Below, in pieces: positions 7,769 to 57,431 of a stretch of 64,000 nucleotides of DNA (the stretch's first letter is position 1; each line of letters starts with the position of its first letter). The translations under genes and the position numbers were made by a program. The notes under the pieces were generated by a model. The model did not search any database. It saw only the letters and a list, made by a program, of their open reading frames with translations, and was not told where the DNA came from. The stretch comes from Raillietiella orientalis. Its lineage: Eukaryota. Location: NCBI GenBank assembly GCA_036172245.1, contig JAYWIR010000007.1, forward strand, positions 744,001 through 808,000. Direction: 5' to 3'.

Positions 7769-8866
7769 TTTCACCTGGTCACGCCGGGACGTTTATCGTA
7801 AAAAAAAAAAATGTTTAAAAAAGAAACAGTCACGTCAAATATTTTAAAAATGTCTTTCTTCGTAGTGATTGCACAGCAGCACCACTACGAAAGGAAATGT
7901 CTGGGAAGCACCGCTTCTCGTGAGCAGCTCCCCGATGAGGTCTGCACAGGAGGAGTGGGGGGAGGGATAAACAAAAACAAAGAAAAAACAAAACTTCATT
8001 TTAAGAATATGTTGAGGGGAGAGGGGGAAACGGAAGGAATCATGGATTTCTTCCTGGCAGTCTCCGCATTCCCTGGAGGATGTTGGCACTCCCCCCTCTT
8101 GCTGGCAGAGATGCAGCCATCTTGTTGCCTTCCTCATGAAGGAGCAGACGATTGAGCTGACCTCACCGTTCCATCGGCCTCCCCGTTCTGTGAGGCTTCT
8201 CACCGCCACGATTTCACGAAGGTAACACAGAGCTGAGGGAGAAGCTTCAGGAGACATCGCTTGCGCTCGAAGAGATGCCGCCAAGACCACTCCGCCGTTG
8301 TCCATCGGGTCCATCGGGAGTGGGAGGGCTGCAGTGAAGCGTTCCCAGACACTCAGGAAGGCAGCATAATGGAACAGCAGGTGCGGGAGGGTTTCCAGTT
8401 CCCCGCACCTGGCACAGGCCGGGGCTGCACTCCCCTTTGTCCAGTGATGGACTCGTGTGTCGCACGGGTACATCACTGGACAAGAGGCACCCCTGGGAGA
8501 TAGCTGGCACCAAAGCTGCCCGGTTTCCAGAACTGCATTCTTTCTGGATGGCGAGGAAAATCTGGCCCCATTCGCAGCGAGGAACTGAGACCCGGCGCCC
8601 CACGATTTCCATAGATACCCTCCTCTTCCAGCCTCCACTCCATCCTCTCCTCCTTATAGATGGCTTCACCTTTGCTGCAGTCCCCACGTCCAGTCGACCC
8701 TGAAAATCTTGACATTCTTCGATTGCCACCAACCTGGCTGTCCCTCTTGTCGATTCTGTTGAGTTCAGAAGGAGAAGAGGCGAGCAAGGGATGCAGGAGG
8801 AGCAACCTCTGCTTCTCTGCACTCCCGCTGCGGAGGATCCGAGCGCCTCCGCACCTCCATCCACAG
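7769..8866 (-). mobile_element. 5'-truncated LINE copy (H), antisense inside an older plus-strand copy
   Basis: ORF 7844-8638 contains HHWTKGSAAPACARCGELETLPHLLFH (zf-RVT). The family 3' motif (gataaacgtcccggcgtgaccaggtg on minus) lies at 7772-7797. The 5' boundary is approximate. Confidence 0.75.
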
Positions 8867-9377
8867 GATCGTCACATGAGAATGCTGCTCTCCGATTGCA
8901 GCCGTCTTTGGACCGAACTCTCCAGGATTCCATCCGGCGTTCTGGATTTCGCCCCCAACGGTCACGAACAGCTCATTCCTTCCACTAAGGTGACAGCATT
9001 CGGCACTGCTCCCATGGCCCCGAGGGTTCCCGTCCAATTTGTGCCGGCACCTCTGGACGAGGGAAAGTGCCGCGCCTAACTGTGCCAGTTGCGGGGAACT
9101 GGATCCTTCCCGCACCAGCTAGTGAACTGTGTTGTCCCCTGGACATCGAAAGGAAGCATCTCCACAGCCTTCTCCATCCTAGCGGGCAGTCCCTAGCAGT
9201 ATTTTTTAGCATATCTCTGTGCGGAGTGCCATGCTGCCTGCAGCCGCCATCGCAGCATTCTGCTAATCGCTCGTCGCTGTCATCGCCACGATGCACGACG
9301 TGCATCCCCTGGTCATTTCGGGGCGTTCCCAACGGAAAAACAGGCAGAAGTTCAAAGGGGTTGTCCGCTGACACGCA
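8867..9377 (+). mobile_element. Plus-strand LINE ORF2 C-terminal fragment (host copy, zf-RVT region)
   Basis: WTELSRIPSGVLDFAP followed by aactgtgccagttgcggggaactggatccttcccgcac (C-A-S-C-G-E...P-H), colinear with the family ORF2. Confidence 0.65.
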
Positions 9378-10570
9378 AATCGGTCACTCTAAAAGTCCGG
9401 GACGGGAAAGAGAGAATGAAAAATAAACAGTAAACAAAACAGGGTTGAAATCTCTGGCATCTTCCGATCCTTATTTTAAAATCGGGGAAGGTCCGGAGAG
9501 GGTGGAATGGGACGATGAATAAATGAAAAGAAAGGTAGCAAGGGACAGAGGACTTTGGGTTCGGTCATTCCTCCGTCCTAGAAGCGTCGCAAAATGGAGG
9601 CCATCTCCCTTTTTACTTCTTTTTCCCGATCAGACTACACAGCAGCCGTCCTCGTGGAGGCGGCTGCCATCACGGTGCCCTCCCTACGCTGCGCTGCCGT
9701 CTCCAAGACATGGCGGACCGTGACGACGGCGCGGACGCAACGCATCGTCGCGATCGCTGCGCCAGCCGAGCCCGCCGCGTGCAAAGGATCGCCGCAGCAA
9801 GTCTTCGGGCGGCTGCCCCTGGATCGCTGAAGACCGCCTCCGCAACAGTTCCTGGAGGGCGGCGCAGTCCAAAAGCAGGTCCGAGATCGACTCCACTTAT
9901 TCGCAACTGGCACAGTTCGTGGATGCGACCCTTTTCCTCCCCTCCGGAGACGAGGTACCAGCGCTAACTGCACCGGAAACCCCAGTGCAGGAACAGCAGC
10001 ACATCCTCAGTGGGAACACGGAAGCAGTTAAGCATCAGGGAGAGAGGAACTACCGGTTCATAGTCTCCGATTCGCATGAAAGACTTGGTGGCGCCACGTC
10101 AGAACGCTGACTTGGGCATCCTGACCATCGAGAACATCGGGCTGCAGGTGCAGTTCCGATTTCTCTCCCTCTGTGGAAGATTGTGGCCTTCCCATTGGTG
10201 AGCTCAGGCACGGCACATCCTCCGGCGATGCGCTGGAAGTGCAGGACTTCTTTCGCTGCGGCCGCGCAGCGAAAGAAGGCGACGTAGGGGCACCGGATTT
10301 GGCGACCTCCTGAGACAGCTGTCCTCACTACTGCTAGCCCACCCGTGGATCGTATGCCGCTTCATAAACTGGAATGCCTGGCAGAAGCAGAATCTGGGGT
10401 CCTGGGTCGTTTCTTTAAAAGAGCGTCCAGAGGAACTGCGATCGCTGCAGAATCTCGTACGCGAGTCGCTGCCAGATCTCCTGCAGGACTGGGCGACCGG
10501 AATAGCCGTCGCACCCTTCTCCGCAGCACTGCCTAACCTCAGGGCAAACAACGACAGCAGCCAATCGGCG
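9378..10570 (-). mobile_element. Degenerate LINE copy (G)
   Basis: Minus frames give CASCE*VESISDLLLDCAAL (zf-RVT). A T-rich 3' UTR on minus lies at about 9400-9560 and a gtgaccga end motif at about 9382-9389. Confidence 0.6.
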
Positions 10571-10706
10571 GGGTGGGGTGGCCTCTTGCAATAGCTGCAG
10601 GGGTCAAGAGACTCCTGGATGGTCGCGAGACGAACGAGTTGGCGGACGGCGGTGCCACTCCTCGTTCCCGGGAGAAGGGACTCCTTCGGTGGAGTGACCT
10701 GCTTGG

Positions 10707-12100
10707 TTTATTACTCGGTCACGCCGGGATACTTATTAGAAAAAATAAACATACATGTTTAGGGCCATCGACCCTATATTGTCTGAAAATGCTCGGAACC
10801 TGTCAAGTAATCGGTACGCAGGTCGGTGGGGTTCGCCTAGGCAGCGGAGGGGAAGGAGACAAACAAGAATAAATACTAAACAGAAAAAATACATACCAAA
10901 AAAAATTGGAAGGGTTAGAGGAGGGATCACCGGGCCCACCCTTTCCAGGATGCCGGCAAGTTCCTTCTGAGTATGACTCAGGTAGGAAGGACTATCTAGC
11001 TGCCGTCCGCAGGAAGCTCAGGGCGAAGCAGATGATGGTGCCGGCATCCTCCACCTGCGTCGCTCCAAGCCACCGCAATCTCGCGTAGGCAGCAAAAAGC
11101 TTCTGGGGATGCAGCAGACGAAAAATCATCGCACACGGAAAGGCGCCACAACCTTTTCCTGCCGTCAGGCATTGAAGTCCATCGAGCGGCAAGAGATCCA
11201 TCGGCGAGCTCTCAGTAGCGAGGCTAGCCGCCTCAGAAGGAAGCCAGATTCCTGCATCCGATATCGAAAACACGGCAACATCGAGATAAGTCTTTCGCTA
11301 CCGAAGGATGAGGAGTGCACGCGCGCACCATGGAGATTTCTAGAACTCTGCATAAATCCCCAGAATTCGAAACTGCACCTGAAGTCCTATTTTTTCCAGC
11401 GTCACGAACTGTCATCCTGACGCGGTGCCACGGAGGTGGATCCTGGACCACGTAAGTCCCAGAAATGAGATTTTCCGTATCTCAGTAGGTGTTGCTCCCG
11501 GAGCTTGGTCAAATAGGGAGACGAGAAAACGAAAAATAAGGGGTAGAGGAGGGGGGGCAGCAAAAGTGTTTCAAAAGGCAGTCTTCTACGGAACGCCCAT
11601 GTACTTGAAGTACCTGCCCGTGTGGATCTCCAGGAGGATCCAGTTGGACTGATCCTCCCATGACACACCACCGGTACAACCGTGCACTTCGTCCTGTTGA
11701 CGCTCATGCCCGCACCCTGGAGGATCAGCTCGAAAAAGCTGCCTTGTTACCGGGGTGGACATGGACAACAGGAGAAGCAGGTCGTCCGCGTAGGCGGTCA
11801 CGGCCGGCGTGTCCGGGCAGGAGCTTGGCAGCTTGGCAGCTTGGCCAGCGCCAGTCTGTACGCTCTCAGCACCAGCTCGAAGATGTTGAAGAGCAGGGAT
11901 CTCAAGCTGTCTCCCTGCCTGACCTCTCTGTGCACGGGAACACCCGCGCACTTGGCAGCCGCTGGAAAAAAAAAAAAACGCTGGTGACCGCGTGGCATCA
12001 GCGAGAGGCATGCCGGAAGACTGACTCGTTCCAAGAGCTCCAGAAGGAGTTCCTGGTTGAGGAAACCGTACACTTTGAGGCACGAGATCGAGAGAGAGCG
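10707..12100 (-). mobile_element. LINE copy (E) with RT core, internal deletion and 3' end
   Basis: REVRQGDSLRSLLFNIFE (QGxP motif), TPAVTAYADDLLLLL, YFKYMGVP, LRARRWISCR, then a jump to IICFALSFLRTAAR. The 3' motif aataagtatcccggcgtgaccgagtaataaa on minus ends at 10707. Confidence 0.85.
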
Positions 12101-12470
12101 CGACCGCCGGGGAGAATCATCCCCTTCGCAACCCAGTTGCCACGGACTGCATCGAGATTGACCTAAACTTGGGAGCGCATCAGGAAGGGCTTGCTGGCAT
12201 CCTGCACAGAATGCAGAGGACTCGACGGCGCGAAATACGATCTCTTCCCTTGGACCCTTTCCCTCCCTCAGCAAAAAAAAAAAAAAATAATACTTTTTCT
12301 CTCATTTTTGTTCCTTTGTTTTTCCTCCCTCTTCCCCCTCCGCCCCCGTTATGAACCTCTCCTTGACCTTCAACGAAGTGTTCGACTCGGTGGGAGATCA
12401 CGCTTCAGCCAGTCTGTGTGTGTGTTTATTTGTTGTAGGAAATAAACGCGTGGACGTGACCTGATGATGA
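12100..12470 (+). mobile_element. LINE 3' end fragment (ORF2 end and 3' UTR)
   Basis: RTASR...GLAGILHRM matches the ORF2 end RTAAR...ELAGILERM. The UTR ends aataaacgcgtggacgtgacctgatga (12441-12467). Confidence 0.7.
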
Positions 12471-12499
12471 CTCTGCTACTGAGCGCAGATCGGTGGCTC

Positions 12500-14750
12500 C
12501 ATAGGAGTGAAGTCGTTGCCAACTTTTCTCGCTGTAGTAAGACATTCTGGCACCAACGAGTGCACAGCGAAGGAATCTGAGGCGCACCATCTTTCTGAGA
12601 GTGATGAACAAGGAATGGTTCGTGAACCGGTGGCGCTGACTCCTCCATGGTCCTCCGTCTCTGTGGTTTTCCACGGAGATCGTCCGCAGAGAAACGCTAA
12701 GACCCATGCAAACGGATGATGGTGATTCGCTCCGATCAGCGAGTTCCGGGAAGGATTCCTCTGGTGCTTCTCCCGAGAGGCGACATCTCCGCTGCCCAAG
12801 GGAGGGAGCGAGGGTTCGCAACGAGATCTCTGGTCCCTCACGAAGGTTTCGGAGAGAAAAAGAAATCAAGAAATCAAGGGTTTTCAAAAACCCTTGATTC
12901 CTTTTTTCTTCCTGCTTAGTGGGTCTCCACTTTGAGCTGGATACCTTCGCCGTGAGATGAAGATGAAACCCGAAGTTTCCGCCACAATTTTCCACACCTG
13001 TTCGGGCATCTGGTTGTAAGAAAAACGGTGCATCCGTGGTTGCCGTAGGCACCATAAACTGCAAGTCTCCGGGGACTTGGCAGTTACTGAACCATACCCA
13101 GAAGCTGTTCGCATAAAACCTTCCAGGAGGACGCCAGACCTACAGGATTCCATTGGAGCCGTGATCCGAGATCTGCACCGACAGTGGCGGCTTTAGACAA
13201 ATCCACACTCCAAACCTTTCTCTGCATGCCGTCGCAGCCTCCTTCCTGCTCAACTGAACCGAAAGATCCTTCCTTCCGACGAAACGCCGGAAGGCAGGGG
13301 AGCGGCTCCATCCCAGTACTTTGATGCGGGTCCTCGGCTCGGCTCCGATTGACGACTCTAATGATTTGCCGCCATCCTGCCGTCCTTGGCGACCAATACC
13401 TTGCATACTGCCTGCTGCGTCGTATCGGGCGCCGTGGCTGACGTTTGTCACCGAGCCTCTTTCTCTTGCCAAAATTTGCCGTTAGACTCCCGTGGATTTG
13501 GACAGCCCGAGCTTCAGCATTGGAGCTAGCCGGACTTCCATCCATTAAAAGTTTGAGAATAGGTCGGAACTCGAATCGTCCTTTTTACCGGATGTGGCTC
13601 TTCTTCTCCCTTCCTGTTTGACAAGCGATAGCTATCCTGAGTGAAACTTCGGAGGGAACCCGATACCGGATGCTTCTATTATTCGAGGAAATCACAACAT
13701 GGGAACATCAGATGGAGGCATCATCTGAGCGGGGAGTTCCGTCGGTTGATTGGAGAAGTCCCGATGTTTCGGAAATCGATCGAAGCTGGAAGGACATTTT
13801 GACATTTTGTAGCTTCGAATAAAGGCTTTCTCTCTGTCCAGTTCCTGCTCCTGCAACCAGGACTTTCCCGATGGCTGAATAGTGCTTGAGAGACGGAATC
13901 CAGCGGGGAATGATGTCGATGGGTTGACCTCTTGTCCCGAGAGGCTGCAGAGTGTCCAGATCGCCAAACCAATAGTAAACACTTCAGCAATGGATAACAA
14001 GAATCAGCAGGCATCGATCGGCCGTTCAATCAACTGGCCACTCGAATCGAACCACTGAAGAGGCACGAATTAATGCCCCTGAAATTTATTTGGTCCTTCA
14101 ATTACAGAGATGGCAATTGCAAGAGATTTCGGTTCCATGGAAGTTTAGACTGTTTCGTTGCGTGCCTAATAGAATGCAAATGCAGCAGCAACCCGAACAG
14201 ATGTTGACGATCGAACGTTGCAGTTTTTTCAAGACAAGGAAAGAGGACAGGGTTCCTCTAAGGATTCAGCAAGGGAGTTACGAAGATTGGACAGCCAGGC
14301 TAACAGCTCTTTGTATCATTGGGAAAATGCACAGCGTTTCAAGCATCAACCCAAACTTCTAGACTAATTAAATCATCCCTTCAATACACATTCAAGTAAA
14401 ATATACAACTAGCGCCTTTATGAAGTCTTGAGAGCATATTTTGAACTCATTATTCTGCTCTCTGAGTCCAAACGCTACTTCAAGCTTGTCTTCTCCGATC
14501 CTCAGACACACTGTGCCCTGGAGAAGCAGCTACTGATAATTCCTGACTCGGATGACACTTGGATATGCCCTTGTACTATTTCCATAAATGGAGCATCCCC
14601 AGCTATATCTATAGCTGGGGATCTACTAAGTTCTACTAGGTAACTATCTAAACCTAGTTCTACTAGGTTTAGATAGTTACTAACGCTATGGACAGTAAAG
14701 TGTTTATCAGTCGTGCACTGTTGGTGAAACACCCAACTCACTAAGATCCT
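12500..14750 (-). mobile_element. Highly decayed LINE ORF2 remnant
   Basis: The minus strand near 14290-14313 (caaagagctgttagcctggctgtcca) resembles RGVRQGCP. Downstream SWLQEQELDREKAFIRS resembles the post-RT region. Boundaries are poorly defined. Confidence 0.35.
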
Positions 14751-17030
14751 ACTGTTAAATGTTCAGACTTTTAATGTATTAATTCAGTAACCATAAGCAC
14801 TATCATTCTATGGGAACTCTCGCATACCTACACCGGTTTAAAAAATTCGCGCAACGTTCCTAATCATCCCAAAATCTACTGGGAAAGATGAAATCACAGC
14901 AGCAGAATCAACACCGGATGTTATTAGGAATAAGTATTGGGCATAATCCATGCATAAGCATTATTTTCACTATGTATATATGTGAGCATAATTCACCAAC
15001 CCGCTATATGTATGCATATTTCATTATGCAATGTTTTTTTAATAGAATGTACAGTGTCATATGGACAGAGTCCTCAGGGTTTATTTGTTTCTTTTCTAGA
15101 TGTTGTGAGTCACAAAGTCAGATCTTAAAAAAAAAAAAAAAAAAAGAAAGAAAGAAAGAAAGAAAAACAAAAACAGGATCAAAAGCAAAAACAGCAAGAA
15201 ATTGCTGTTTTTGCTTTTGACAAGATCCTATAAAAAGTTTCTCTTTCTTTATGCGATCTAGTAGCTTGTTCTCCGTAGTGAATTATTTCAGTAGCCCATA
15301 TCCTCTGACTCCTACAAGAAAGAAAGCGGAAACAAGTTTTGAATAGTGATTCATATCTTTTAGTATGTATATACTCATTAGGTAGCTATTAATCGATAAT
15401 GTTCCATAAACATTGACACATTTATGATTTTCATTTTCTCAGAAACGCTGGAACCCACCGTTACTAGTTCCCCCTCTCTCAAACATATTTTTCATAATGT
15501 TTTGCAATCCCTTATAAAGAAGAAAAAAAATGAATGCATCGAAGTAACACTGAGTCCCAAGTAACACAGTATTAATAATTTGGGGTCATTACCACAGTCA
15601 GTATCGATTCACAAAAGCTCTTGCTTCTTTTTTGTATTTTTTTTTTAACTTTTATTTGTGTTTTTCAGTGTGTTTTAATCATGTACGCGTCAGAGTATTC
15701 ATAATCCAGCATTTTTTGTTGCTGCATTTTATATTCTCAGATTCCATTAAACGCTTGACTTTTCAAGATAACATCCTGGAATAGATGTTTTTTTAAAAAA
15801 AAATATATATTCATCCTAGTAATTTGAACCACTAAATTCGAAAAATATGATTAAATAAAAAAGTTGCTCTCGTTTTCACTTGGAAGTTTTATTTTAAAGT
15901 TTCTCGGAATCATGAAGTCAGCCTTCAGAATGGTTTTGAAATTATTCTTGAAGAAATAGCATTCCAATATATTCTCCGTTTTTTTTTCTTTCTCTATTAT
16001 TTATTTTTTGAAGAATCCATGTTTATCGGTGTTGTTATGCTTAGTATATAAAGCCAAGCCTAGCCTTCATTTGTATAAACATGGATCCTATTTATACAGA
16101 TGAATTTACGAATCCAGAGTTTAAGAATCCTAAAAAGCACATGGCAGCATGCAGGGATGAAATTGCTTTCTACTCGATATCCTTGAGGGAAAGGGTATGG
16201 GAAAAAATGAGAATATTGCGCTCAGAAATTGGAGACGACCAGAAAGCACAAAATAATAAGTGGATATTTGTGCCTTGCTCTATCGAGTTTCAAAAACACT
16301 ATCACTGTTATCAAAGACGCCTTGGGGCTTTTTTCTGGTGTATTCAGACGAAGCCCTTCGTGTCAACGCCGTCACCTCGTGTACAAAAGTTCGCTTTGCA
16401 TGGAACGACTCGATTCATCAATGAACACGACACCCGACACAAAGGAAGCAGCCGAGCAGGCATGATTTTAACATGCCAAATGTTGAAAAGTGATTTTGTA
16501 GTATTTTGTTTTATTTTATATTTGTTGCCTTGTTATTTCCAGAGTCGTAAAAACATGTATGTGGAACTAGATATTTCCATGACACGAAATTATTATATGG
16601 CTTTTACGAAAAAAAAACATATGTACATACAAAAGTGATATCCAAAATCAGCAGGTTTTGTGTAACAGGTGTACATTCATTAATACACTGATAAAACTTC
16701 CCTAAAACTGTTCAAATATCCAGAAACTCGTGGCTTGCCGCACCCCGTAGTTTACATCACATGAAGGGTAAAGCTTCGTGAAATCATGGCGACAAAGATT
16801 TTCGTCCCGTACACATTATCCGACATGTGTTAAAGCATTTGCTGTTTCATCAGATCCCAAGTGAATAAAGTTGATTTATTTAATCCTAACCCGGTATTTG
16901 GCCTACAAACCTATGCTGGTATTCATATGCTCTTGAGAGAGATCAACAAGGTCGTCCGTTTAACGGTGAAAGGCCTGCATTTGCCAATTCGGGTGTACAC
17001 ATGGAATGAATGGCAGGTGCTTTCTAAAAA

Positions 17031-25400: not shown

Positions 25401-27700
25401 ATATATCCCAGCGCACTACGCTGGCACTCTCCGATGGTCCCTTGGGGATCTTCAGCTCTCCCTCCCATTGCCGTGTCATTTTCTGGATTCCAAGATCTCA
25501 AGGATTCCGTGACAAAAGCTCTTACTGCCGCAGTGACCCCTCGTGTGAGCAAAGCAGAGAGTCTTTTTCGACACCCACCCTCCTTCCGCTACTTCCTTTC
25601 TCCAAAGAGAGAATTCTCGCGGAGGCAGGCGGCGTCCTTCTAGGAAGTTTTAGTTCGATTACTCCTTCCCCTCTGTGGAGTGCCAAATCTGGTCAAAGTT
25701 TGAAGCCCATTTCCGGAATAGTCTGATTGGAACGATCTGCTCCCAGTGTTTCCCGCTTTCACTCTTGATCTTTTCCATGTCCTCCAGTCATCGTGGTTTT
25801 ATTGTCGATGAAGTGACTGAGGATGTGTCCTATCCAGGCACCACGCATCTCCCGCATGTGAGATCGGCGCCTTCCCGGGTGGGCTATGCTCTCAGAGTAT
25901 ATCCTTTTCGGCACTGGAGCGGCACGGGACGCAACAGGTTGGGATGGCGGCGACCTTCTTGAGGTACTTCTTCTCAGGCGATCGAGAGGATCCTAATTTG
26001 AAAGGTGCGGAGAGAGGAACTGGCTCTTATCCTTTAGAAAATGCAGAGAGCACTCAGGAGCCATCTATGATCTTCTTCCTAGTTCCTCCCATCTCCACCT
26101 TCTACACACATTCATTTCCTTTCATTTTCACCCACCTCCCTCCAGCTTTCCCCAAGCGGATCTCTCTGGCCATCAGGACAACTGCTCGACACCTGCCCTC
26201 TGGCACATCGTACACGTAGGACGTAGAATCTTACTAATATTGTATGTTTCTTGTTTTGTTTGTTGGAAATGAAGGCCCCGAATTCGCCGGATGCCAACAC
26301 GCAAGGCAGTGCATTGATCCGCTTCCTACAGATCCATCTACACTCTGCAAAGCTATCACTATAGCTAAACTGTTCACTAAACAGCAAAGGTCCCTGGCAT
26401 GAGGTGTTATCCCACGCAGTACATGTCCTTCCTTCTCTTTGATCCGGGTGTTTTGTGATGAGAACCGCACTTGTCTTGCGCAGGGTGAGGGTGATTTTCT
26501 TTCTCACGTGTTTTCCGAGAGTGGGGTCGTTGCAGTAGCGAACGTCCACTTCACCTTTGTTCAGCCGGAGGTACTTGCCTGTACCCATCTCCGCTTTTGA
26601 TGTCGCCATAAAGTTTTTCCTGCTTTCCTTCGATCAGCCATCAATCATCCCCAGATCGATCCTCGATCAGGTGAGGTGCTCATTCGGATCACCTAAGGTG
26701 CTGTTTCGATTTCTTTCGCTGCCGATGAGTGACACTAGAGTTGCTTTTCGTGCATCTCTGTGGAACTTGCGGTTTGGTCGCTTCTGCTCGAACGGAGCCA
26801 TCGACTGTGCACTGACAGGTGCGCTGCCAAGTCCTGCTCTAGCAGCATTTCTGGAGCAGTACCGCGTTGGAATTGCAGTTTCCGTGTTTTTTTCTGGTCA
26901 ACTTGAAGGTGATGCTTTTTTTTCTTCTTTTCTTTCCCCTTCTAAAATGCATTTGTCATCGTGGTGACCATGCTCTTGGAATTGGACTGTTTTCTTCCAC
27001 TACAGCATAGAATCTTGTCGTCCGGTACAACGGCAATTACGCAGGCACGGAGGCTCCCTGGCTCTTGGCCACCAACTACTGTTGGATGTACAAATGCAAT
27101 ACTCCATCTGTTCATATCCGTCATATCCTCGATTAGCCTCTCTAAGTCTGAAAACCTGTCTGGAACATCTGAAAGGTGGCTCCGAGGCATACAAGATCAT
27201 ATGAACTGCAGGATGTCCGTATGAGAGCTGTATGAGAGCGCGGTGTACGGTGGACGAAGAAAAGTCCTCAACCGTCATCGGAGATCTCATATTTGATCGC
27301 AACACGCGTCAGGCTGTCGCGCTCACGGCGCATTTGAGTGATGAGCGGCATTCCGTCACTGAAATCCCTTGAAGGACATGCTGTGGTTTCACCGTGCACC
27401 TTCGAGGCACTTTTCACGCACGCAGAAAGCGAAATGCGGCTCTTTGGTTAAAGATCTAACCGTCCTTCTTCTTGCCTCAGTGTACCGTTTATGAAAGAAA
27501 GCAGCATCCCCAAGCGAAGGGTAGGGCCTCCTGCACAGGAAATGCACGGTGTGGGGCGAGGCACATAATAAACCATTGTGTTCAGCTGTCAGGGGGCACA
27601 GGCAAGATGCACAGCGACCTTTCAGACCAAATGAGAAAAGTGAATCGGGCTGTTTACAAGGCAGAGCAGGAACGGTAAGGTAGCAGCGTGAAGCTTTGCA
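22500..27700 (-). mobile_element. Old, possibly near-full-length L1/Tx1-like LINE fossil
   Basis: On minus, in order: ORF1-like segment with decayed zinc knuckle EHGHHDDKC (about 26950-26980), endonuclease-like segments (about 26000-26450), linker ISAEEENKLSCEI (about 24150-24200), SLVEAFRWF (cf. DxEKAFD, about 23760), FRQGMP (about 23540), and ADWSS-GIAV (about 23190, matching PDWSSLGIP of the young copy). It has many stops and frameshifts. Confidence 0.45.
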
Positions 27701-36372: not shown

Positions 36373-40620
<4,248 letters not shown>

Positions 40621-47800: not shown

Positions 47801-47900
47801 CCTTGGAACTCCAGTACTGTGCAGTGCCGAACCGTCGGGGCCTCGAAGAAGACTGGCCCTTCCCCGTGGGGAAGAGGGCAAACTCCTAGGTGGCAGGATC
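44900..47900 (+). mobile_element. Decayed LINE (ORF1 knuckle remnant to RT start)
   Basis: RVGHWKPC (about 45180) and INRQKNLLCCGIADRMDGTAPGALELQYCAVPNR (47735-47835; cf. KILAxxLAxRLxxxLPxLIxxDQxCxVPGR). Confidence 0.45.
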
Positions 47901-48049
47901 AGCCTCTCCACGCGCAGTGTACCCATCTGGTCGTAGGGAGTATCGACGGTCTGCGGAGCCTCCGAGGGTTTCGGCCTTCCGCAGGAGGCGCACGAAATCT
48001 TCGAGCAGGCTACACGCGAGGTCGAACACTTTTCGGGAAAACCGCTGAG

Positions 48050-48640: not shown

Positions 48641-49129
48641 TGGGCAGGATTCGCCGAAAGGAAGCACCGTGGAGAAGTTCTTTTTCCGGGTCCTTCCTTT
48701 TCGCTTGCCTCGAAGACTGTTGGGAGCGCCTCCAGGTTGCCAGTCTAATCTGGCAAACCCTGTGAGTGATCCCTAATCAATTCGAGGGCCTAAAATTGTG
48801 TTCCACTGAACGGGAGCAGACGCAAGCATCGTTCTGGATGTTGGCCCCTCGTATTGAGACTGTGGAACATCCCCCGGTGCTTCCCTTCAAACTCGTATTC
48901 TGGTGAGGGACGCGAGTAACTTCGAAGGACCTATTCCCATCCGCCACCTCAGGCAAGGGGCGAGGTGGGCGCTACCCCCTCCTCCTGGTTGCGTTGTTGA
49001 TGGAAGAACACGAGTGGACTCAACCTCCCTCCCACCGAACGGGAATGCTTGTCTGCAAAAGCACTGGCCGCCTGGAGATGACCGGAAAACCCAACCCTCC
49101 CCAACAGCAGCGCCATCAAACGCCTAGTG

Positions 49130-49985
49130 AAACGCCACCACGGCCAGAGACTCGACAATGACATCTTGGATGTCCTCGCGTTGCATTACCAAGCCCATCG
49201 GACAGTGTATCGACCGGCGAACGAGGCCATGTCCAAGAGCTGGCTAACGACCTGTAATGGCAGGCAGGCGTCCCTCGGCATTCCCTGTGAAAACTTCGAA
49301 AGTCTTCGTCTCCAGCAAACTGCCATCTTGCTGGTACACTGGACTCTCCCCCGGAACGAGGAGAGTCGCCACACTTCAGGGGATGGAGCGACTAAAGAGT
49401 GCACCCACTGGAGCACTTCTTCACATGCTCCATGAATGCGGAAGGTTGGGTCCAGGGCGGAAACGCATCGCTAAAGCACTTACTTTCCTCGGGACTGGTG
49501 CAAAGCCGTGGTCTCTTCTCCAGGCTTATCGGTTGCATCCCCTCTGGCGATTCCCTTCCACGTGTGAACGGCGGTGGCCGTCGCAACGGAGGCAGGGTGC
49601 GTCCATGGAGCCGTTGGCGGTCGCCGTCGCCTACATGCGGAGCGGACAGAATGGCGCAATCTAGGATGAGATTCACAAGGGTACCCTCGAACGGATGTGG
49701 GTGGGCTAACCTGACGCTGGTAAACGCATGGGATGGATAAGGGGTGTGTTCACCCCCTCCCTACCATCCATTCCCTATGCAACGCAGATCCCCGGAAACC
49801 TCGTTCGTTACTGTGAGACCGATTCATCCCATTCCCCATTTGATTAGATGATTATTCGTCCTAACCCCTCTCCCTCAACTCCTCCCTAGTTTTGTCCTTA
49901 CGTTTCGAGTCAACACACGTCTATCCTTCCCTCAAACTGAAAAAAATTTGTTTATTTACTTTAAATAAGTGACACGTCAGTGTCG
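49130..49985 (+). mobile_element. Diverged LINE 3' fragment
   Basis: LGIPCE...QQTAILLVHWTLPRNE matches QESALLLLHWGLPCN, followed by a pyrimidine-rich UTR. Confidence 0.55.
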
Positions 49986-49989
49986 ATGA

Positions 49990-50450
49990 GAAGGTCACGC
50001 CTTGATCAATAAAATTCCAAAGAATAAAAACAAAAGCAGTGCAGAGCCGGGCGCTAGCAAAGTCCCAAGAATTCTGGAATAGCAGGTGAGGAGCGATCCA
50101 GCTGGCTAGCGAGGCTCAGCTTCGGGAAAGAAGGAGGAGGCGGGAAAGAACAGATAAAGAGATTTTGAAAAAATATATAGGTACCTCCTATCCGGGAGTG
50201 GGAGGCAAGGAAGGCAAGGTCATTGGTGTTTCATTGGGGTCCTCTACATCCTTTGCAGGATGCTGGCAAGTTCCTCCTTCAGTGCCACCTTTGTAGAGCC
50301 ATCCTCCCACTGCCTCAAGAAGTTCATCATGAGGATGGTGCACGCGTCATCTTTGGGCTGCACTCCTCGCCGCGACCCTGTCACAGAGGATGCAGGGAAT
50401 TTCCGCGGCAGGCGGCATCGTGCTGCGCGCGAAGGGACTCTTCAACACTG
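49990..50450 (-). mobile_element. Short LINE 3' end copy, tail-to-tail with the previous copy
   Basis: The minus strand encodes ...ELASILQRM* (50244-50275), then a T-rich UTR and ggcgtgacc end motif (49993-50001). Confidence 0.7.
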
Positions 50451-51039
50451 ACACGTGCTATAAACCTACGTTCATAGCACGTGTCAGTCAAGCAACATCT
50501 GGAAGACGATGTCTCCAGAGCGGCCAGCAGGAACTAAGAGGGTCAGAGAGCGTCGGAGGACAATACAATCCACTAGCACGCGCGGGAAGGATTCCAGTTC
50601 CTTAGCACTTTGCACGTTCCGGGGTCCTCTCGTCCCGGGATGCACCCCCGTTCAGGAGACCCCTGTCGAGGTCCGAGCTCGGTGCCTCGAGCCCGGTGCG
50701 GAGTTTCCTGACCTCGATCTGAAACTCCCCCTTGCTGGACGCTATCCTTAAAGTTCCAGAGCCAAGACCCGCCCGCATGCCGGGGGAAGTGGAGTGGCGC
50801 GACTTGGGATGCGAGAGTCCCTTCAAAGGGGAACAAATCAGGTCGGCCCATTCCCATCCCCTTGTTCTCCCGACGCGGGTCCGAAGTCGTGGTGCTCAGT
50901 AGCGAGAAACCGGTCGAGTCCGTTCCCTGTTTACTTACTTCCCCTCCTCCCTCGTCCTTCGCTCCTCCCTAGTTACGCCTGCAGCGAGGGGCAGACCCTT
51001 TGGTTTCGGGCCCGGCACGCGTCCCTGACTGCCTGAATT

Positions 51040-51700
51040 TTATTTATTTATTTTAAAAATAAATGGCCCGGTGATCCAGGAAAAGAAGGCGGGACCGGGA
51101 AGCTCGTTCGTCACGGAATAAACGCACATGCAGGGAACCGAGTTCCCAGTGGGATTCCGAAGAGATGGGATGTTGTCCTCCAGGCACGTGATTCCTGGAG
51201 AGGGGGGAGACTTGAGTGGCAAGTAGAAGGGAAGGGATAAATAAATAAAAGTGAAAAACGGAAGGGAGGAGAGAGAGGAGTCCCCGGGCTCCAGACTTTC
51301 AGCCTTCACTCCTGGCACGATACGGGCGGCGCCTCCGTTTCCTCCGCCGCTGTTCGATACGGCTGCGGCCTCGTCCGCGCCCGCTCCCCGGAGCGCGGAG
51401 GCGGCTGCTGCCGTGGAGGGGATGGGGGCTTCCTCTCTCGCCTCCGATGGCAGGCTTCCGCGAAATGCTCTGAGCTCCATCTCTGGCAGCGGGTACTCGC
51501 TCCTCCAAGGTCGCGTGACTACCCGCTGCTGGCGAAGGTCCATCCGCCCGATGGAGCTCGCTTGCACCTGTCCCGACGAGGGCACTGCTGTCCCGTGGGA
51601 GACTCGAGACGGATTCCTCCCTCCCCGCAACACGGTTCCACGCCACCCGAGGGCGCGTGTAGTAACTCTTCTAGATAGGAAGTGGTGCTCCGGGAGGGAA
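51040..51700 (-). mobile_element. Internally deleted LINE-derived element (RT fragment, UTR, (TAAA)n tail)
   Basis: Plus-strand tttatttatttatttt at about 51040-51055 is a (TAAA)n tail on minus. LPEMELRAFRGS is an RT subdomain 2-3-like segment, homologous to 6960-7270. Confidence 0.45.
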
Positions 51701-51759
51701 CCGCCCTATGAATCCAGGAAGGGCTCAGAGTCCGTTCCTCTCACGCCCGGGGAGGGATC

Positions 51760-52140
51760 CCCGAAGAGAAATCTCCTCCATTATTCTCTCCGAAGGGACC
51801 CCCGGAGGGGTCCGCTTCATTTTTCTTCTCCGAAGGGAACACGGAAAGGATCCGCTAATAGGAATTTCTTCTTCGGAAGGGCCCCTCGGAAAAGGAACCA
51901 CTCCTTCCCTCTCCTAAAGAGAACCTGAAGGGACGCCTCCGAAATTTCCCCGAAGGGAGCGGCGCGCTTTTCTTCACTCTCTGAAGAGGTGGTGGCGACA
52001 CACCTACTCCATGGTGCGACAAGGAGGGTCCTACCCCCGAAAAGGGTGGGGTCCACTCCTTTGAACAACCGGAAAGTAACTACCCACTCTTTGATTCTGT
52101 TTTCTAAAAGGACCCCGAAGGGTTGACTCCCGATTCCTGC
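51760..52140. repeat. Degenerate tandem array of about 40-bp monomers
   Basis: Repeated ctccgaaggga(c/a)c..cgga(g/a)(g/a)gg.tccgct units at about 51787, 51828, 51870, 51911 and 52103. A related stretch lies at about 7280-7590. Confidence 0.6.
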
Positions 52141-52292
52141 CACTCATCGGGGACATCTGATTTCAATCGCTAACAGTGCCGCATCCCAATAGAGGCCGAC
52201 CAGCGTCATCTTGTAGGAGGAACTCGAACTCACGGCGCACCCCCGCATTTCTCGCCGTTGATTCTTTCCAGGTATTCGAATCCGCGACTGCT

Positions 52293-53540
52293 GATTTATC
52301 ATCCGGTCACACCGGGACGTTCATTATAAAAAACAAGCATATATATATAGGACCATAGGCCCCACAACGTCCGAAAACGCTCGAAACCTGTAGAGTAACC
52401 GGCAAGCAGGCCGGCGAGGTTCGCCTCGGCAGCGGAGGGGGAAGGGGCAAACAAAAAGAAAAAGAAAATCAAAAAATAACACTATATGCAAATAAAATAA
52501 GAGGGTTAGGAAGGTGTCATCCTTTCCAGGATGCCGGCAAGTTCCATCCGAGTATACCCCAGTGGGCCATTTTGCTGCGGGAGCGCGGGAAGCTCAGGAA
52601 GAAGCAGATGGCGTCCCTATCGTGCCGTCCTCCTCTCGCGTGGCTCCAGCCCGCCACAATCCTTCGTAGGCAGCAGCAGAGAGCTGCTGAGGATGCAGCA
52701 GACGAAAGGGCATCGCGCACGAAGAGGCGCTCCATCTCGTCCCTGGTTTTGTCCGTCGGTGCGCCAAGGGTCGTCGCGGGACGCAACCACAGGGGCCGGA
52801 GGGCAACATAGTCTACGAGCAGGTGCGGAAAGGATTCCCGTTCCCCGCACCTGCAACAGTTGGGGTCCACAGCCTCCCGGGCCCAGTGAGAGTGGAGAAC
52901 GTTGCACGGGATACCCCAGTGCAAAAGCAGAAGTGCCGACTCCTGCCATTTCAAGGGGAGGGCCCGGTTGTTCTTCAGCGCTGGGGCCCACTTGAGGTGT
53001 TCCTGTAGAATTCCCAGCAGCTCATCCCAGCGCAATAGTCCTTTCGGTAGGGCACTTGGAGTCGCAGCATTCGTGAGCTGGTCCGTGGTCCAACCACTTA
53101 ATTCCATCGCCCTTCCTCCGATCTCACATCGGACCTTCCATTTGGCTGGCTGGTTACTGCCCAAGTGCTCCCCGAGGGAGGACAGTGCTGCAGCTAGGGA
53201 GGTTTATGGGCCCACGCATACGTGGTGGGCTGCACGATGACGTTCTGCAGTGAGCGGTTGTTGTGGAAAGAGTGCAGCAGTCGCTGAGGCATCTCCATGC
53301 TCGCTTCTTTGTTCTTGACTCATGTGCGAGTGGTTTCCTGCAACCAGGCACTACCGTTCGCGGATCGACAGAAGATCCAGTTGTTGGTCCTGGTCAGCTG
53401 GACCACCCTTCGTAGCTCCAGCCCGCAGTTGCATCGCTCCGTGCCAGGAATGAAGACAGTCCCGCGTAGTTGGTGGCTCGCTTGACCAGGTATCGTGAGG
53501 TCTCTCACCAGTTCATGCTCCAAGGCTCCGCCACTAGTCT
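52293..53540 (-). mobile_element. 5'-truncated LINE copy (D), antisense inside A
   Basis: ORF 52517-53164 (KGLLRWDELLGI...CCRCGERESFPHLLVD) is closely similar to C. 3' motif aatgaacgtcccggtgtgaccggatgataaat. Flanked by CTGCT at 52288-52292 and 53541-53545. Confidence 0.9.
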
Positions 53541-53852
53541 CTGCTCGGTATCCCCCTCGAAGAACCCGTGGCCCCTTCCCTGTGTGCGGACACCTCCGCA
53601 TTCCCGCTTCGTTGATAACGGGATTCCGGTTCGAGACACCTGGTTCCCGGGGAGTCGCTTCCCCGAACTGTTCCGGGTGTGGGGCGGTGGAATCCTTCCC
53701 GCACCTCCTTCCTGCTGGACCGTGCTGCGTCGGAGGATATGTGGCGGGGACTCCCTTCGGCGCTTCGCCACCCGGAAGATTCCCCCCCCCCCCCGACTTC
53801 GGACTTGCGGACGCTTCTTAATGCAAAGCGGGCTGGTCGCGGGCGCTGTGAT

Positions 53853-56800
53853 TTCACACCCGGGTGCGCCGAGGCGTTTATTCCTCTTGCAGGAATCGAT
53901 GCAGCCAAAAGACTCATCGATTCCAATTATTACATTAGGGAAAAAGAGGGAGAGCCGGCGAGTTCCATCACGTACACGAAGGGGAAGAAGGATGAAACAA
54001 ATTCCAACAAAAGGAAAACAAACTATAACAAACAATGAAGATTAACAAAACAACAGCAACAACAAAAAAAAAACAAAAAAAAAAGATTAGATGGGGGGAA
54101 GGGAAGAGACCACATTTCGTGGTGGGTGAGGCCTCTGCATGCGTTGAAGGATGTCGGCGAGCTCCTCCTTCTCCCTTTCCAGGTGGAGCCATCGTAAAGC
54201 TATCTGCAGGAAGCGAATGGCATGCAGGACAGCCCCCCCCCCCGTCTCTCTGGTCTCCCTCGGCGTCGCACTTCGCCACGACGGCACCGCGAACGCAGCA
54301 CAGCGCTGCGATTGCGGCTGCGGGCGTCATGGCGTCCCGCACGGAGAGGGGTGTCAGAGACTCTCTGAGATCGTCCAAGGGGCGCGGAAGGGACTCAAAG
54401 AAACGTTCCCACATGTCCGTCGGAGGGCAACACACTCACTATGGGGTGGGGGAAGGTCTCCTGTCCACACCTGGCGCAGTTCGGCGATGCGCGCTTCCCC
54501 TCGTCCAGTGGTGCCGGCGCTCATTGCACGGGAGACCCCAGTGCAGCACCAGCAGTGCCAATGAGGGCATACAGGGAGACTCTTGGTCGCCTGCCGCGCG
54601 TGTGCCCAGGTACACCGGCCGTGGCGTCTTATGCGGACGATCTTTTGCTGCTGCTCCCCATGTCCACCCCGGTGTCGGCGGTCGAAAACTTTTTCGAGCT
54701 GCTGCGTCGCGGGACAGGGCTGGAGGTGAACAGAGCGAAGTCGTCCGTGGTTGCAGCTGGTTCATCGCGGGCAGGGCAGCCGGACTGGTCTAGCTTGGGA
54801 ATCCCCACGGTACCGTACTTTAAGTACCTTGGTGTGCCGTTGGGAAACTATTCCCCTGCGGAAGCGTGGTCCAGCTGCCTCCAAAAGGCCGAGAGAGCGA
54901 TCGGCCCGTTCCTGGATGGCAAGTTTTTCTTGCCGGAACGGGCCGTGGTGTGGAACACGTTCGTGGCCCCCCTTTTTCGCCCCTTGCTTTTTGTTTGCTT
55001 TCCACCCTGCGGTGTCAGAAAACGGACGAAGGACCTCCTCAGAATTGCCCTTTGGGGCAGAGGTAGGCCCCGAGTCCGTTTGAAGGACTTATGTGCTCCT
55101 GGTCGCGATGGAGGCCTCGGCCTCCTCACGCTGGAGCGGCTGGAACTGCAGCTGCAGTTCAGGACTCTAGCTCTAGTAGCGAAGCTATGGAGCACCAGCT
55201 GGTGCGAGCCTGCACGACGCCTTGTTCAGCGAGCTAGCGGCTGCGCGGGACTGTCTGCCTTCCTAGCGCGCCGCGAACGCCGGTACCTGTTCCACTGCGG
55301 ACTGGCACTTCGGCGAGTGGCGAAGCTGACCAGAACGAACACCTGGATCTCCTGTCAACCCGCGAACGGTACTTCCTGGTTGCAGCAGAGCCTTCGTACG
55401 TGGGCCCAGATCGAGGAAGCGAGCCCGGAGTTGCGGCAGCGAATGCTGCTCTCCTATCACAAGATCCGCTCGCTGCAGCACATCATTGTGCAGCCCACCT
55501 TGAGCGCATGGGCTGAGAGGACCTCCCTCGCCACGGCTCTGTTCCACCTCAGGGAGCACCTGGGCAGTAGCCAGCCGGCGAAATGGGAAGTCCGGTGTAG
55601 TATCTCTGGAAGAGAGAGAGAGCAAGGTGGTTGGACCACGGGCCAGTTGACAGACGCTGCGACCCCAAGTGCCCCACCAAAGGGACTATTGCGCTGGGGC
55701 GAGCTGCTGAGCATCCCCATGGATGTACTCGAGTGGACCCCGGTGCTGAAGACTACCCGGGCCCTCCCCCAGAAGTGGCAGGAGTCGGCGTTCCTGGTGT
55801 TGCACTGGAGACTCCTCAGCAACGCCTGCCGTTCGCACTGGACTAGGGGGGCTGTGGACCCAAATTGTGTCAGGTGCGGGGAACGGGAAACCCTCCCGCA
55901 CCTGCTTCTTGACTGTGTTGCCCTCCGGCCTCTGTGGTTGCGTTTCGCAACGGCCCTAGGAGCACCCACGATCAACCCTAGAGACGTTCTGACGCGCCTC
56001 TTTGTGCGTGACGCCCTTCGGCCTGCCGCAGCCCTTGCAGCCCTCTGCTGCCTACGAGGGATTGTGGCGGCCTGGAGCACCGCCACTGGTGGACTGAACG
56101 ACAGGGACATCATCTGCTCCGCCCTGCGTTTCCTGAGGACGGCAGCCAGATGGTCCCATTTGGGACGTATGCGGACCGAACTTGCCGGCATCCTGGAAAG
56201 GATGTAGAGGACGACTCCAGCGGAACGTGATCCCTTCCCCAACTCCTCCCTGCTTTTGTAAATAGTGTTTTCTTTTTGTTTTTATTTGTCCTTTTCCCTC
56301 CCGCTGCCTAGTCGAACTCGCCAGCCTGCGTGCTTGCTACTCGGCAAGTTCAGACTTTTTATTAGAACATTTTTAGGACACTGTAGGGGCAATAGCCCTA
56401 CACTTGCTTGTTTGTTTTTACTAAAAAATAAACGCTCCTGCGCACCCGGGTGTAAAAGCAGTGCCAATCTCTGCCGCTAGGCACTTGAGGCGAAGCAGCT
56501 TACAGTCCATAAACAAAGGGGATACTTCCAATTCTTCGGGCTGAATGGAGAAGAGTTCGCCCCAACGTTCCAGTCCTTTGGAGACGGTCCTTGCTGTTGC
56601 CGCGTCAACCAACTGCCGCGGAGTCCAGCCACCGATAGGTTTCCTGTGGGCCGAGATCTCGTAGGAAATCTCCCGCTCCGCCGGTAGGCAGGTGCTATGT
56701 ACCTCGATAGCGGAGGACACTGCTGCGGCGAAGGTGGTGGCTGATGGGTAGGCCAACATAGTCAGTTCACTACCCACCGCCTCCAGTGTTCTTCCGCTGT

Positions 56801-57431
56801 TCTTCTGAAACTCTCGGCAGCGGGAAAATTCCGACGGGGCCCGGGAGAGCTGAGCCCACGTTCTCAATTTCCTATGCCTCCAGGCAGGAGTGTTCGCAGG
56901 GCGGCAGCAAATCCACGTGTTCGCTCTCACCAGAGCAGCGATACACCGGAGAGGGAAGCCACAAGATGGGAGCCGGGGGTGGTGACACGCAAACGGGGTT
57001 GCGAGTCCTTCACCATCAACCCCCAGCTGGGAGAGCTGGGAGCCTTGCATTCAGGGGAGCATCAATAGTGACCCAGTTCTGTGCCACGAAGGCCAGTCTT
57101 CGGAAGTTCAACTGAACTTGCATGCGCTCCAACGTCAAGAGTCGAAGTCCTCCGTCGCGACAAGGAGCACACAAGTCTTTTAATCGGACTCGGGACCTCC
57201 CATTGCCCCAGAGGTCTTTTCGAAGGAGGTTCTTCCTCCGTTTTACCACATCGGGGGAGCAGGGCACACGAAAAGCAGAGATCGAAAGACGAGGGCCACA
57301 AAAGTATTCCAAATGACGGCCCGCTCCGGCAACCGGAAGTTGCCTTCTTGGAACGGACCGAGCACCGACTCTGCCTTCTGGGGCAGTCGGACCACACTTC
57401 CGTAGGGAAATGTCATGCTGTGGTCCTAGGT
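53853..57431 (-). mobile_element. 5'-truncated LINE copy (B), antisense inside A and interrupted by C
   Basis: 57431-56469 encodes LWGNGRSRVRLKDLCAPCRDGGLRLL...KGLERWGELFSI. It resumes at 54562-53853 as LALLVLHWGLPCN..., UTR, aataaacgcctcggcgcacccgggtgtgaa. TSD GCTGTGAT at 53845-53852 and 57432-57439. Confidence 0.88.
54563..56456 (+). mobile_element. Youngest LINE copy (C): 5'-truncated L1/Tx1-like element with uninterrupted RT C-half and zf-RVT ORF, antisense inside B
   Basis: Open frame to the stop at 56207: SYADDLLLLL, GLEVNRAKS, FKYLGVPL, LCAPGRDGGLGL, CVRCGERETLPHLLLDC. 3' UTR with AATAAA at 56428 and end gtgtaaa. Perfect 12-bp TSD AGCAGTGCCAAT at 54551-54562 and 56457-56468. Confidence 0.95.

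Follow-up and report, generated by a model that had tools for sequence, protein, structure and literature searches.

We identified five nested insertions of one GC-rich LINE retrotransposon family within copies of the same family in a window of 64,000 nucleotides (the whole stretch of DNA analyzed), each of them antisense to its host. The nested copies (H, D, E, c10/B, and c9) lie in two clusters and represent five of approximately 13 copies. Our leading explanation, which we hold tentatively, is repeated self-insertion by target-primed reverse transcription, with the nesting pattern as a by-product of a modest nick preference for CTGCT. Such a modest preference is plausible, and a dedicated self-targeting system is unproven. 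The preliminary description of this DNA had proposed a self-targeting LINE; its original observation is largely real and its interpretation is partly supported.

Copies were mapped by nhmmer and tblastn. Together with their flank units they make up roughly a fifth of the window (sum of the mapped parts) and form two repeat-rich, GC-rich blocks (Table 1). All of the approximately 13 fragments are 5'-truncated, with varying start points along ORF2 and a common 3' terminus, in which, in the minus-strand copies H, D, and E, a stem-loop precedes an A-rich tail. Judging from its protein motifs, the family is L1/Tx1-like, i.e., a predicted APE-type non-LTR retrotransposon. The YADD motif of reverse transcriptase is present in P0001, its relative P0002 (70% identity) has an RVT_1 match with E = 4.7e-24, and at least 120 of 226 long relatives carry PF00078. 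Scans of metagenomes yielded only distantly related LINEs. None of the 297 window ORFs matched RVT_1 at E ≤ 0.01, and none of the 297 scanned matched Exo_endo_phos, all family copies there being 5'-truncated; likewise, tblastn searches of the window with the EN regions of P0004, P0006, P0010, and P0011 gave no match. The N-terminal endonuclease domain was seen solely in distant relatives (24-31% identical), which have an APE, RT, and C-terminal zinc-knuckle architecture. A CxxC...HxxxxC pattern is visible in P0001 and in host copy X, and the C-terminal zf-RVT match (PF13966) is weak (E = 0.0013; 19.8 bits, under the 27.5-bit cut-off). Copies c9, D, the E 3' piece, and A constitute a young subfamily (65-75% identity), and the hosts are older. 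The window also contains an ASC/ENaC channel exon and looks animal.

Table 1. Mapped copies of the LINE family and their flank units, in window coordinates
Feature	Position	Strand	Description
A	337..1236	+	Young subfamily, 5'-truncated, long (ATAAA)n-like tail; not nested; flank GGTGGGG without motif
Unit copy 1	7196..7766	+	Precedes H; homolog of unit copy 2 (51631-52293); presumed upstream part of host-1
H	7767..8497	-	Old subfamily; 3' terminus at about 7767 adjoins unit copy 1; 5' truncation at ORF2 nucleotide ~1466
p8900	8875..9379	+	Host-1 resumes from ORF2 nucleotide ~1318; uninterrupted W-x-E-L site
m10038	9473..10060	-	Old copy, ORF2 nucleotides ~1356 to ~1930
E-host	10061..10706	+	Old ORF2 fragment, P0001 residues 236-445; ends ...GACCTGCTTGG at ORF2 nucleotide ~1341
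E 3' piece	10707..11150	-	Young subfamily; 5' truncation at ORF2 nucleotide ~1622; antisense insertion at shared site
E 5' piece	11157..12100	-	Old subfamily; RT and thumb region; same-strand join to young piece
3' end fragment	12076..12471	+	ORF2 nucleotide ~1700 to terminus
m26	25899..26297	+	Solitary 3' fragment, outside clusters
x50	49987..50869	-	Old copy; 3' end ill-defined
Unit copy 2	51631..52293	+	D's left flank; ends GCGACTGCTG; taken as upstream part of host X
D	52294..53538	-	Young subfamily; ORF2 nucleotide 804 to terminus; terminus starts after ...GCGACTGCTG
Host X part 1	53539..53852	+	ORF2 nucleotides ~1333-1645 including zinc-finger motif; ends in duplication GCTGTGAT (53845-53852)
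B (3' part of c10/B)	53853..54562	-	ORF2 nucleotide ~1415 to terminus
c9 (C of the preliminary description)	54563..56457	+	Youngest copy; 5'-truncated in RT domain; 548 open codons (P0001 residues 65-612), 3' UTR, terminal stem-loop
c10 (5' part of c10/B)	56458..57431	-	ORF2 nucleotides ~480-1426
Host X part 2	57432..57857	+	Second GCTGTGAT, then ORF2 C-terminus, 3' UTR, terminus

The right-hand cluster contains a three-level nest, c9 in c10/B in X. Target-site duplications prove both insertions: c9 is bracketed by an exact 12-nt duplication, AGCAGTGCCAAT (left copy at 54551-54562, within B; right copy at 56457-56468), and c10/B by the 8-nt duplication listed in Table 1, and host coordinates run on unbroken across both inserts. 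Contrary to the earlier reading, B (53853-54550) and segment 56469-57431 are one minus-strand copy, lying in X and split by c9 at ORF2 nucleotides ~1415-1426. The nest order agrees with age, the innermost copy being c9 with its open reading frame, c10/B being 59% identical to c9, and X about 40-55%; the ORF2 C-terminus reads FMRTAARCPRL in X and FLRTAARWSHL in c9. In the same cluster, D is bracketed by the 5-nt direct repeat CTGCT (52288-52292 and 53541-53545), with 1-2 unassigned bases at either junction. A target-site duplication was sought and not found for A, E, H, m26, X, and x50. Nearby, segment 49782-50277 resembles 50873-51336 as a tandem duplication.

In the left-hand cluster, H is about 55% identical to all other copies, and the 5' ends of m10038 and E-host adjoin. 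The 3' terminus of E begins directly past ...GTGACCTGCTTGG of E-host. E had been treated as one element; on sequence identity, it is a same-strand chimera, the young 3' piece being 74% identical to D and the old 5' piece nearest to inverted E-host (63%) and just 53% identical to c9. The 5' end of the young insertion is joined to another old copy. The 3' end fragment beyond it probably represents the rest of E-host; if so, about 360 nt of host would have been lost.

The junction coordinates previously given for E, D, and H are correct to within 1-2 nt; however, the insertions do not fall at one ORF2 site, as had been claimed, since they range over ORF2 nucleotides ~1314-1645 (~1314, 1338, 1341, 1426, and 1645). 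The ends of D and E fall at the same ORF2 codons, with 2-3 nt between them, in different hosts, E-host and the left flank of X being unrelated in sequence. The end of H lies 24 nt upstream of this shared site in the flank alignment, in agreement with the ~25 nt reported before, and c9 lies downstream of it, at ~85 rather than ~75 nt. The left flank of D ends GCGA-CTGCTG and the sequence past its 5' end (53539 onward) reads CTCTGCTCGGTATCCCC; combined, these pieces match the reference GCGAGCTGCTGAGCATCCCC at 16 of 20 positions (count of shown letters). The proposed homology of the D and E sites has local support only: no similarity to ORF2 was detected in the remaining ~570-660 nt of D's left flank, or in unit copy 1, and that part is homologous to the left flank of H (63% identity; shuffles ~42%). 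A 25-nt local match between D's left flank and X, which H's flank does not share, was equalled in one of 200 shuffles.

All five nested insertions are antisense in the copy mapping, as described before, and so would be two further possible nestings, one of the old E 5' piece within E-host and one involving E-host and m10038. The 1-in-32 odds attached to this pattern are inflated by ascertainment, because same-orientation joins go unnoticed, as happened when the E chimera was taken as a single element. Insertion positions in the window were compared with a null of 200,000 simulations that placed sites uniformly along hosts ~1,350-1,600 nt long. The closest pair falls within 3 nt with P = 0.046 for five events (P = 0.028 with H left out), four of the five sites fall inside 112 nt with P = 0.008, and the joint position statistic gives P = 0.002. 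All tests are post hoc and the window was picked because it looked odd; the clustering statistics, like those for the motif, are marginal.

On the sense strand of the host, CTGCT precedes all three young nested insertions (c9, D, and E), with offsets of 0, 1, and 3 nt, and their 3' flanks read AGCAGT, CAGCAGT, and CCAAGCAGG, exactly as first described; the duplications of c9 and D (AGCAG, 5 nt) start with the proposed motif, and in the flank of E it lies 3 nt further in. The suggested AGCAG target preference is nevertheless represented by only two independent sites, because D and E share one, and the motif is absent from 7 of 10 callable 3' flanks (B, H, A, the 3' end of E-host, m26, X, and x50). 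At least 3 of 10 flanks with a common 5-mer in the first four offsets correspond to P = 0.015; D and E are not independent for this test, and with E dropped, at least 2 of 9 such flanks are expected by chance (P = 0.47). For a 6-mer common to at least 2 of 9 flanks at offset 0-1, P = 0.047; c9 and D share AGCAGT. In c9, D, B, and H, the copy-to-copy nhmmer alignment runs 2-5 nt past the A-rich tail, and AGCAG could come from the 3' end of the element itself, through read-through or microhomology, instead of from an endonuclease preference. At the shared site CTGCT is kept in X and E-host, the two hosts that were hit there, and not in c10, p8900, or A. The sense strands of eight family copies contain 33 CTGCT and 8 AGCAG, against a background of 67:87 over 36 kb of GC-rich DNA. 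A target on the family's sense strand had been proposed to force antisense self-insertion; the asymmetry is present, and a nick after CTGCT would favor antisense self-insertion. The nick preference and its causal role are our inference.

We propose that this LINE family may have inserted repeatedly in its own older 5'-truncated copies through ordinary target-primed reverse transcription. A modest nick preference, ...(A)CTGCT↓ on the primed strand, would probably be a property of the young subfamily (c9, D, and the E 3' piece). Through CTG-CTN Leu-Leu codons, the motif is about four times commoner on the sense than on the antisense strand of the family, so that hits in older copies would be mostly antisense, and the conserved GAG-CTG-CTG codon site may have been used twice. 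The pattern would then arise incidentally, from a preference for a short motif that is locally abundant as a target, and not from dedicated site-specific self-targeting.

The strongest rival, which we consider unlikely though a serious contender, is chance combined with ascertainment: a LINE without meaningful sequence preference in one chosen window of a repeat graveyard, where many insertions fall in older copies and same-orientation nestings would be missed as single or internally deleted copies or lost by direct-repeat recombination. On this view, five antisense events, one near-coincident pair, and a common pentamer are an occasional outcome of looking for patterns in such a window. Self-hits are expected when the family and its flank units make up so much of the window, the individual P values are 0.008-0.05 in tests picked afterwards, the motif test no longer holds when D and E are treated as a single site, most flanks, including that of young A, are without the motif, and E proves that a same-strand join of young and old pieces was taken for one element. 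However, chance accounts poorly for D and E ending so close together in unrelated hosts, for the 6-mer AGCAGT that c9 and D have in common no more than 1 nt from the nick (any such pair in nine flanks, P = 0.047), for the joint position statistic, and for five antisense nestings of five with the two further possible cases antisense too.

Dedicated self-targeting, in which the endonuclease, alone or with target-RNA pairing, would recognize an extended ORF2 sequence around GAG-CTG-CTG and so direct new copies to old ones as a safe haven, is improbable. It would suit the concentration of four sites within 112 nt, the two different hosts struck 2-3 nt apart, and the share of copies nested in their own family, and it has precedents, as far as the available text of the sources goes, in Zepp-like L1 elements of green algae and in target-specific Tx1/R1 lineages (PMC4640811). 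Against it, five different ORF2 positions were used, A and m26 are not inserted in a family copy, three copies have no CTGCT at the shared site, and the hosts have diverged so far (40-60% identity) that they conserve no extended recognition sequence; Zepp arrays, moreover, are described in the available text as tandem, whereas orientation here alternates. That a single ancestral junction gave rise to all the shared ones, through segmental duplication or a composite element amplified as a unit, is very improbable and already disfavored by sequence comparison: the H and D left flanks are homologous over ~570 nt, both loci show flank, inverted copy, and resumed plus-strand ORF2 in the same order, and a tandem duplication lies nearby, but H (55-58% identical to everything; 58% to D) and D (74% to c9 and E) belong to different subfamilies and are not sister copies, their 5' truncation points differ (ORF2 nucleotides ~1466 and 804), their junctions are 24 nt apart, and the host flank of E, unlike that of D, is recognizable ORF2, with no alignment between the two flanks. 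Twin priming does not fit, as each inverted copy has a complete 3' end of its own and the subfamilies differ.

The favored reading, repeated self-insertion with a modest nick preference, can be compared with three known systems. Human L1 has a weak TT/AAAA nick preference, 5' truncation, target deletions, chimeric L1s, and 5' inversions. The present family resembles it in its short degenerate nick motif, variable duplications (5, 8, and 12 nt), 5' truncation, and, in E, the junction of a new copy with an old one close by, the DNA between them being lost, and differs in its G/C-rich candidate motif and in a tail of a stem-loop and short A-rich run instead of a long poly(A). Among the target-specific Tx1/R1-clade LINEs, Keno targets U2 snRNA genes and Tx1L targets Tx1D; Kibi, Koshi, Mutsu, and Dewa likewise belong to this group. 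The available text on APE-type target-specific lineages of these clades gives a multicopy target as a low-harm niche as their rationale (PMC4640811). Distant relatives of our family share their APE, RT, and zinc-knuckle architecture; however, those LINEs have a precise 3' junction at one nucleotide of a defined target, whereas here, within the window, junctions spread over ~330 nt, most copies do not share the same nucleotide, and most flanks are without the motif. Zepp and Zepp-like (ZeppL) L1-clade LINEs of the green algae Coccomyxa and Chlamydomonas, as portrayed in the available parts of the sources, are GC-rich (61% GC vs 53% in the genome) and form clusters of nested, mostly 3'-end copies with local GC peaks, existing copies being said to be the insertion target (PMC3446292; PMC8226300; 10.1101/2022.06.16.496473). 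On the same partial account, Zepp arrays are tandem and form one cluster per chromosome at putative centromeres of green algae, whereas every nesting here is antisense and the window looks animal; like Zepp, our family forms clusters of nested, mostly 3'-end copies (five nestings in two clusters), with GC-rich 5'-truncated copies nested up to three deep.

The 64-kb window is divided into two GC-rich blocks (1-14000 and 42000-64000; 52-60% GC) and an AT-rich middle part (33-50% GC). The copies of the studied LINE family were mapped by nhmmer using the c9 copy as a probe and then a profile of all 3' parts, which yielded about 13 family fragments that share one common 3' terminus and differ in their 5'-truncation points. 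The AT-rich middle part (14000-42000) contains a single solitary LINE 3' fragment at 25899-26297. The common terminus, kept in eight copies, has a stem-loop of 5 bp and, after it, a short A-rich run. These copies belong to different subfamilies, a compensated change occurs in two of the five stem pairs, and the stem-loop may serve as a recognition element for the reverse transcriptase. The young subfamily comprises c9, D, A, and the last 444 nt of E (65-75% pairwise identity). The older copies include B/c10 (59% identity to c9), H (about 55% identity to every other copy), and x50, X, p8900, and m10038 (40-55% identity).

The 612-codon frame P0001 at 54369-56204(+) encodes a YADD motif and a Cys/His knuckle. 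Its first 64 codons (54369-54562) are not LINE-coded and represent the antisense of copy B together with a target-site duplication; the true coding part of c9 corresponds to residues 65-612. A search of 1.84 billion representative proteins identified one close relative, P0002 (70% identity over 315 residues), which carries the RVT_1 domain (E = 4.7e-24), and a second close match, the 87-aa fragment P0003, while the remaining matches are 22-35% identical; thus, the family appears to be rare in public data. Both P0002 and P0003 (JGI/IMG) are singletons, with one 2,870-nt contig recorded for each. Neither the comparison of P0001 with longer proteins nor the metagenome scan with P0001 gave a match; the metagenome scan with P0002 gave seven distant loci (short pieces, 22-61% identity), which were left out of the analysis, and among public reads one DNA run contained 15% of the sampled c9 words. 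The longer relatives of P0002, as seen in the 120 listed of 226 matches, originate from ticks, lizards, frogs, plants, and fungi, have 23-31% identity in the best local alignment, and share the APE, RVT_1, and zf-RVT architecture, which assigns the family to the L1/Tx1-type LINEs. None of the copies in the window retains an endonuclease sequence.

The Pfam scan covered the 297 of 398 stop-to-stop ORFs (at least 75 aa) that are located within the two GC-rich blocks, and only four of them have matches at E ≤ 0.01. The 197-aa ORF with a sodium channel domain, which has an additional weak Sdh_cyt match, probably represents an exon of a DEG/ENaC channel gene and suggests that the DNA is of animal origin. 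A weak zf-RVT match falls in the P0001 frame, and one further weak match appears to be stray.

Mapped LINE copies and other features of the window
Feature	Position	Strand	Description
197-aa ORF	3289-3879	-	amiloride-sensitive sodium channel N-terminus, PF00858, E = 2.9e-12 (Pfam)
H	7767-8497	-	host is unit 1 + p8900
E-host	10061-10706	+	clear ORF2 match to the family profile (hmmsearch 6.9e-69)
E, young 3' piece	10707-11150	-	adjoins ...GTGACCTGCTTGG of E-host
D	52294-53538	-	host is unit 2 + X
c10/B	53853-57431 minus c9	-	8-nt repeat GCTGTGAT at 53845 and 57432
c9	54563-56457	+	youngest insertion; AGCAGTGCCAAT (12 nt) repeated exactly at 54551-54562 and 56457-56468
Stem-loop	56412-56457 and 3' ends of seven other copies		CCCGG...CCGGG-like, before the A-rich tail

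The copies c9, c10/B, and X constitute a three-level nest in which every level is antisense. The minus-strand pieces B (53853-54550) and c10 (56469-57431) have continuous ORF2 coordinates, meeting at about 1426/1427 (ORF2 nucleotides are numbered within 54369-56462), and thus represent a single copy split by c9. This copy resides in the older plus-strand copy X, whose halves are continuous in the profile and whose second half encodes FMRTAARCPRL, matching FLRTAARWSHL of c9. The same host received D, which is adjoined by GCGACTGCTG at its 3' side and by the start of X, CTCTGCTCGGTATCCCC, at its 5' side; the two flanks together reproduce the reference GCGAGCTGCTGAGCATCCCC, with a 5-nt CTGCT repeat. 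The termini of D and E are thus 2-3 nt apart at the W-G-E-L-L codons, in agreement with the preliminary description, which had placed these 3' ends within a few nucleotides of each other.

On its sequence, E is a chimera of young and old pieces in the same strand. The young 3' piece is 74% identical to D, whereas the old piece at 11157-12100(-) has 53% identity to c9, 44% to D, and 63% to the inverted plus-strand E-host. The 5' end of the young copy was therefore joined to another old minus-strand copy with a loss of host sequence, which explains the earlier caveat that the other flank of E starts again at a different site. The segments 10061-10390(+) and 11157-11575(-) are mutual closest relatives (63%), and the young 444-nt insertion lies between them as between the arms of an inverted repeat. 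An insertion of E-host into the element of m10038 was rejected, since nothing beyond the far end of E-host supports it.

The flank of H aligns with the flank of D and stops 24 nt earlier, close to the offset of about 25 nt reported previously. After H, the plus-strand host resumes at 8875 (ORF2 nucleotide ~1318), and no family match was found in the intervening ~380 nt (8498-8875). The left flanks of H and D, termed unit 1 (7196-7766) and unit 2 (51631-52293), are 63% identical, compared with about 42% for shuffles. When sought as ORF2, the unit gave no match better than E = 1.2 with the DNA profile, scored no better than four control regions with the protein profile on six frames, and had no blastx match to 151 LINE proteins; a protein-atlas feature search gave no usable match. 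The negative ORF2 searches weigh little, because X is itself nearly invisible to c9-type probes, being missed by the c9 DNA probe and barely detected by tblastn (E = 0.003). At both the H and D loci, the inverted copy is directly followed by the resumed plus-strand ORF2, at the position that the junction predicts. Most simply, the unit would be the upstream part of an old host lineage, and it might represent a diverged linker region or the 5' portion of a non-autonomous derivative. An origin of the unit by 3' transduction or 3' extension was rejected, as the tail is absent at the far end and copies of different subfamilies share the unit. Twin priming or 5' inversion was rejected, as the inverted copies have complete 3' ends and come from other subfamilies. 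The search for an extra minus-strand copy to the left of unit 2 gave no more than a weak signal of tandem duplication. A diverged tandem duplication (49782-50277 and 50873-51336; nhmmer E = 1.2e-09) covers the 3' end and flank of the older copy x50.

In the host sense strand, which serves as the primed strand, the nick follows GGCACTGCT for c9, GCGACTGCT(G) for D, and GACCTGCT(TGG) for E. The AGCAG motif proposed as a target in the preliminary description (CTGCT in the host sense strand) is present at these three nicks and absent from the other seven of 10 flanks (B, H, A, the 3' end of E-host, m26, X, and x50). The sense strands of eight copies contain CTGCT and AGCAG in a ratio of 33:8, and in c9 alone CTGCT occurs nine times in the sense orientation, once at 1336. 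The background of CTGCT in family DNA amounts to about 0.4% per position. At the shared site, CTGCT is kept in X and E-host and is missing in c10, p8900 (the resumed host of H), and A.

The insertions are ordinary target-primed events. We tentatively favor a scenario in which the young subfamily would have a modest nick preference for CTGCT, and Leu-Leu codons would make this motif strand-asymmetric within the family; this scenario needs the fewest assumptions to account for the orientation and for the repeated use of one site. The statistics are all post hoc: the closest pair of sites within 3 nt has P = 0.046, or 0.028 if H is left out; a clustering of four of the five sites within 112 nt has P = 0.008, and both jointly have P = 0.002. 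A 5-mer shared by at least three of 10 flanks has P = 0.015, which becomes P = 0.47 for at least two of nine flanks when E is dropped; the sharing of a 6-mer at offset 0-1 has P = 0.047.

Chance plus ascertainment, ranked close behind the CTGCT preference, is a somewhat unlikely source of the whole pattern. The antisense orientation of all five insertions was confirmed, with a one-sided, likewise post hoc, probability of 1/32 that does not yet allow for ascertainment bias; the earlier use of this figure is weakened, because pieces joined in the same strand pass for a single element, as shown by E, and go uncounted. In addition, nicks in the antisense strand of the host could, we infer, lead to internal priming on homologous LINE RNA, leaving no visible nest and creating an apparent antisense bias. 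Even if chance is responsible, the case is a useful warning: counting the orientations of nested LINEs gives biased results, since nestings in the same strand pass for single copies or chimeras.

Dedicated self-targeting of Zepp or Tx1 type is a possible yet improbable alternative, and the site precision gives it no support. A more far-reaching reading is similarly improbable: in an animal genome, the young subfamily would have an endonuclease with a nick motif, ACTGCT↓, that coincides with a conserved Leu-Leu codon pair of its own ORF2, and new copies would therefore go preferentially antisense into older ones, constituting a sequence-encoded self-targeting safe haven with inverted-repeat nests able to yield double-stranded RNA against the family. 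Finally, duplication of one junction would account for the shared junctions but is disfavored as very improbable, since H and D are not sister copies and their junctions are thus independent events.

Strictly alternating nests also give rise to extended inverted repeats of family sequence, a natural source of hairpin RNA for silencing. If the modest CTGCT preference is real, codon usage that makes the nick motif strand-asymmetric inside the element would suffice for orientation-biased self-nesting; an evolved targeting module would be unnecessary, and the family would illustrate a cheap route towards Zepp-like self-targeting.
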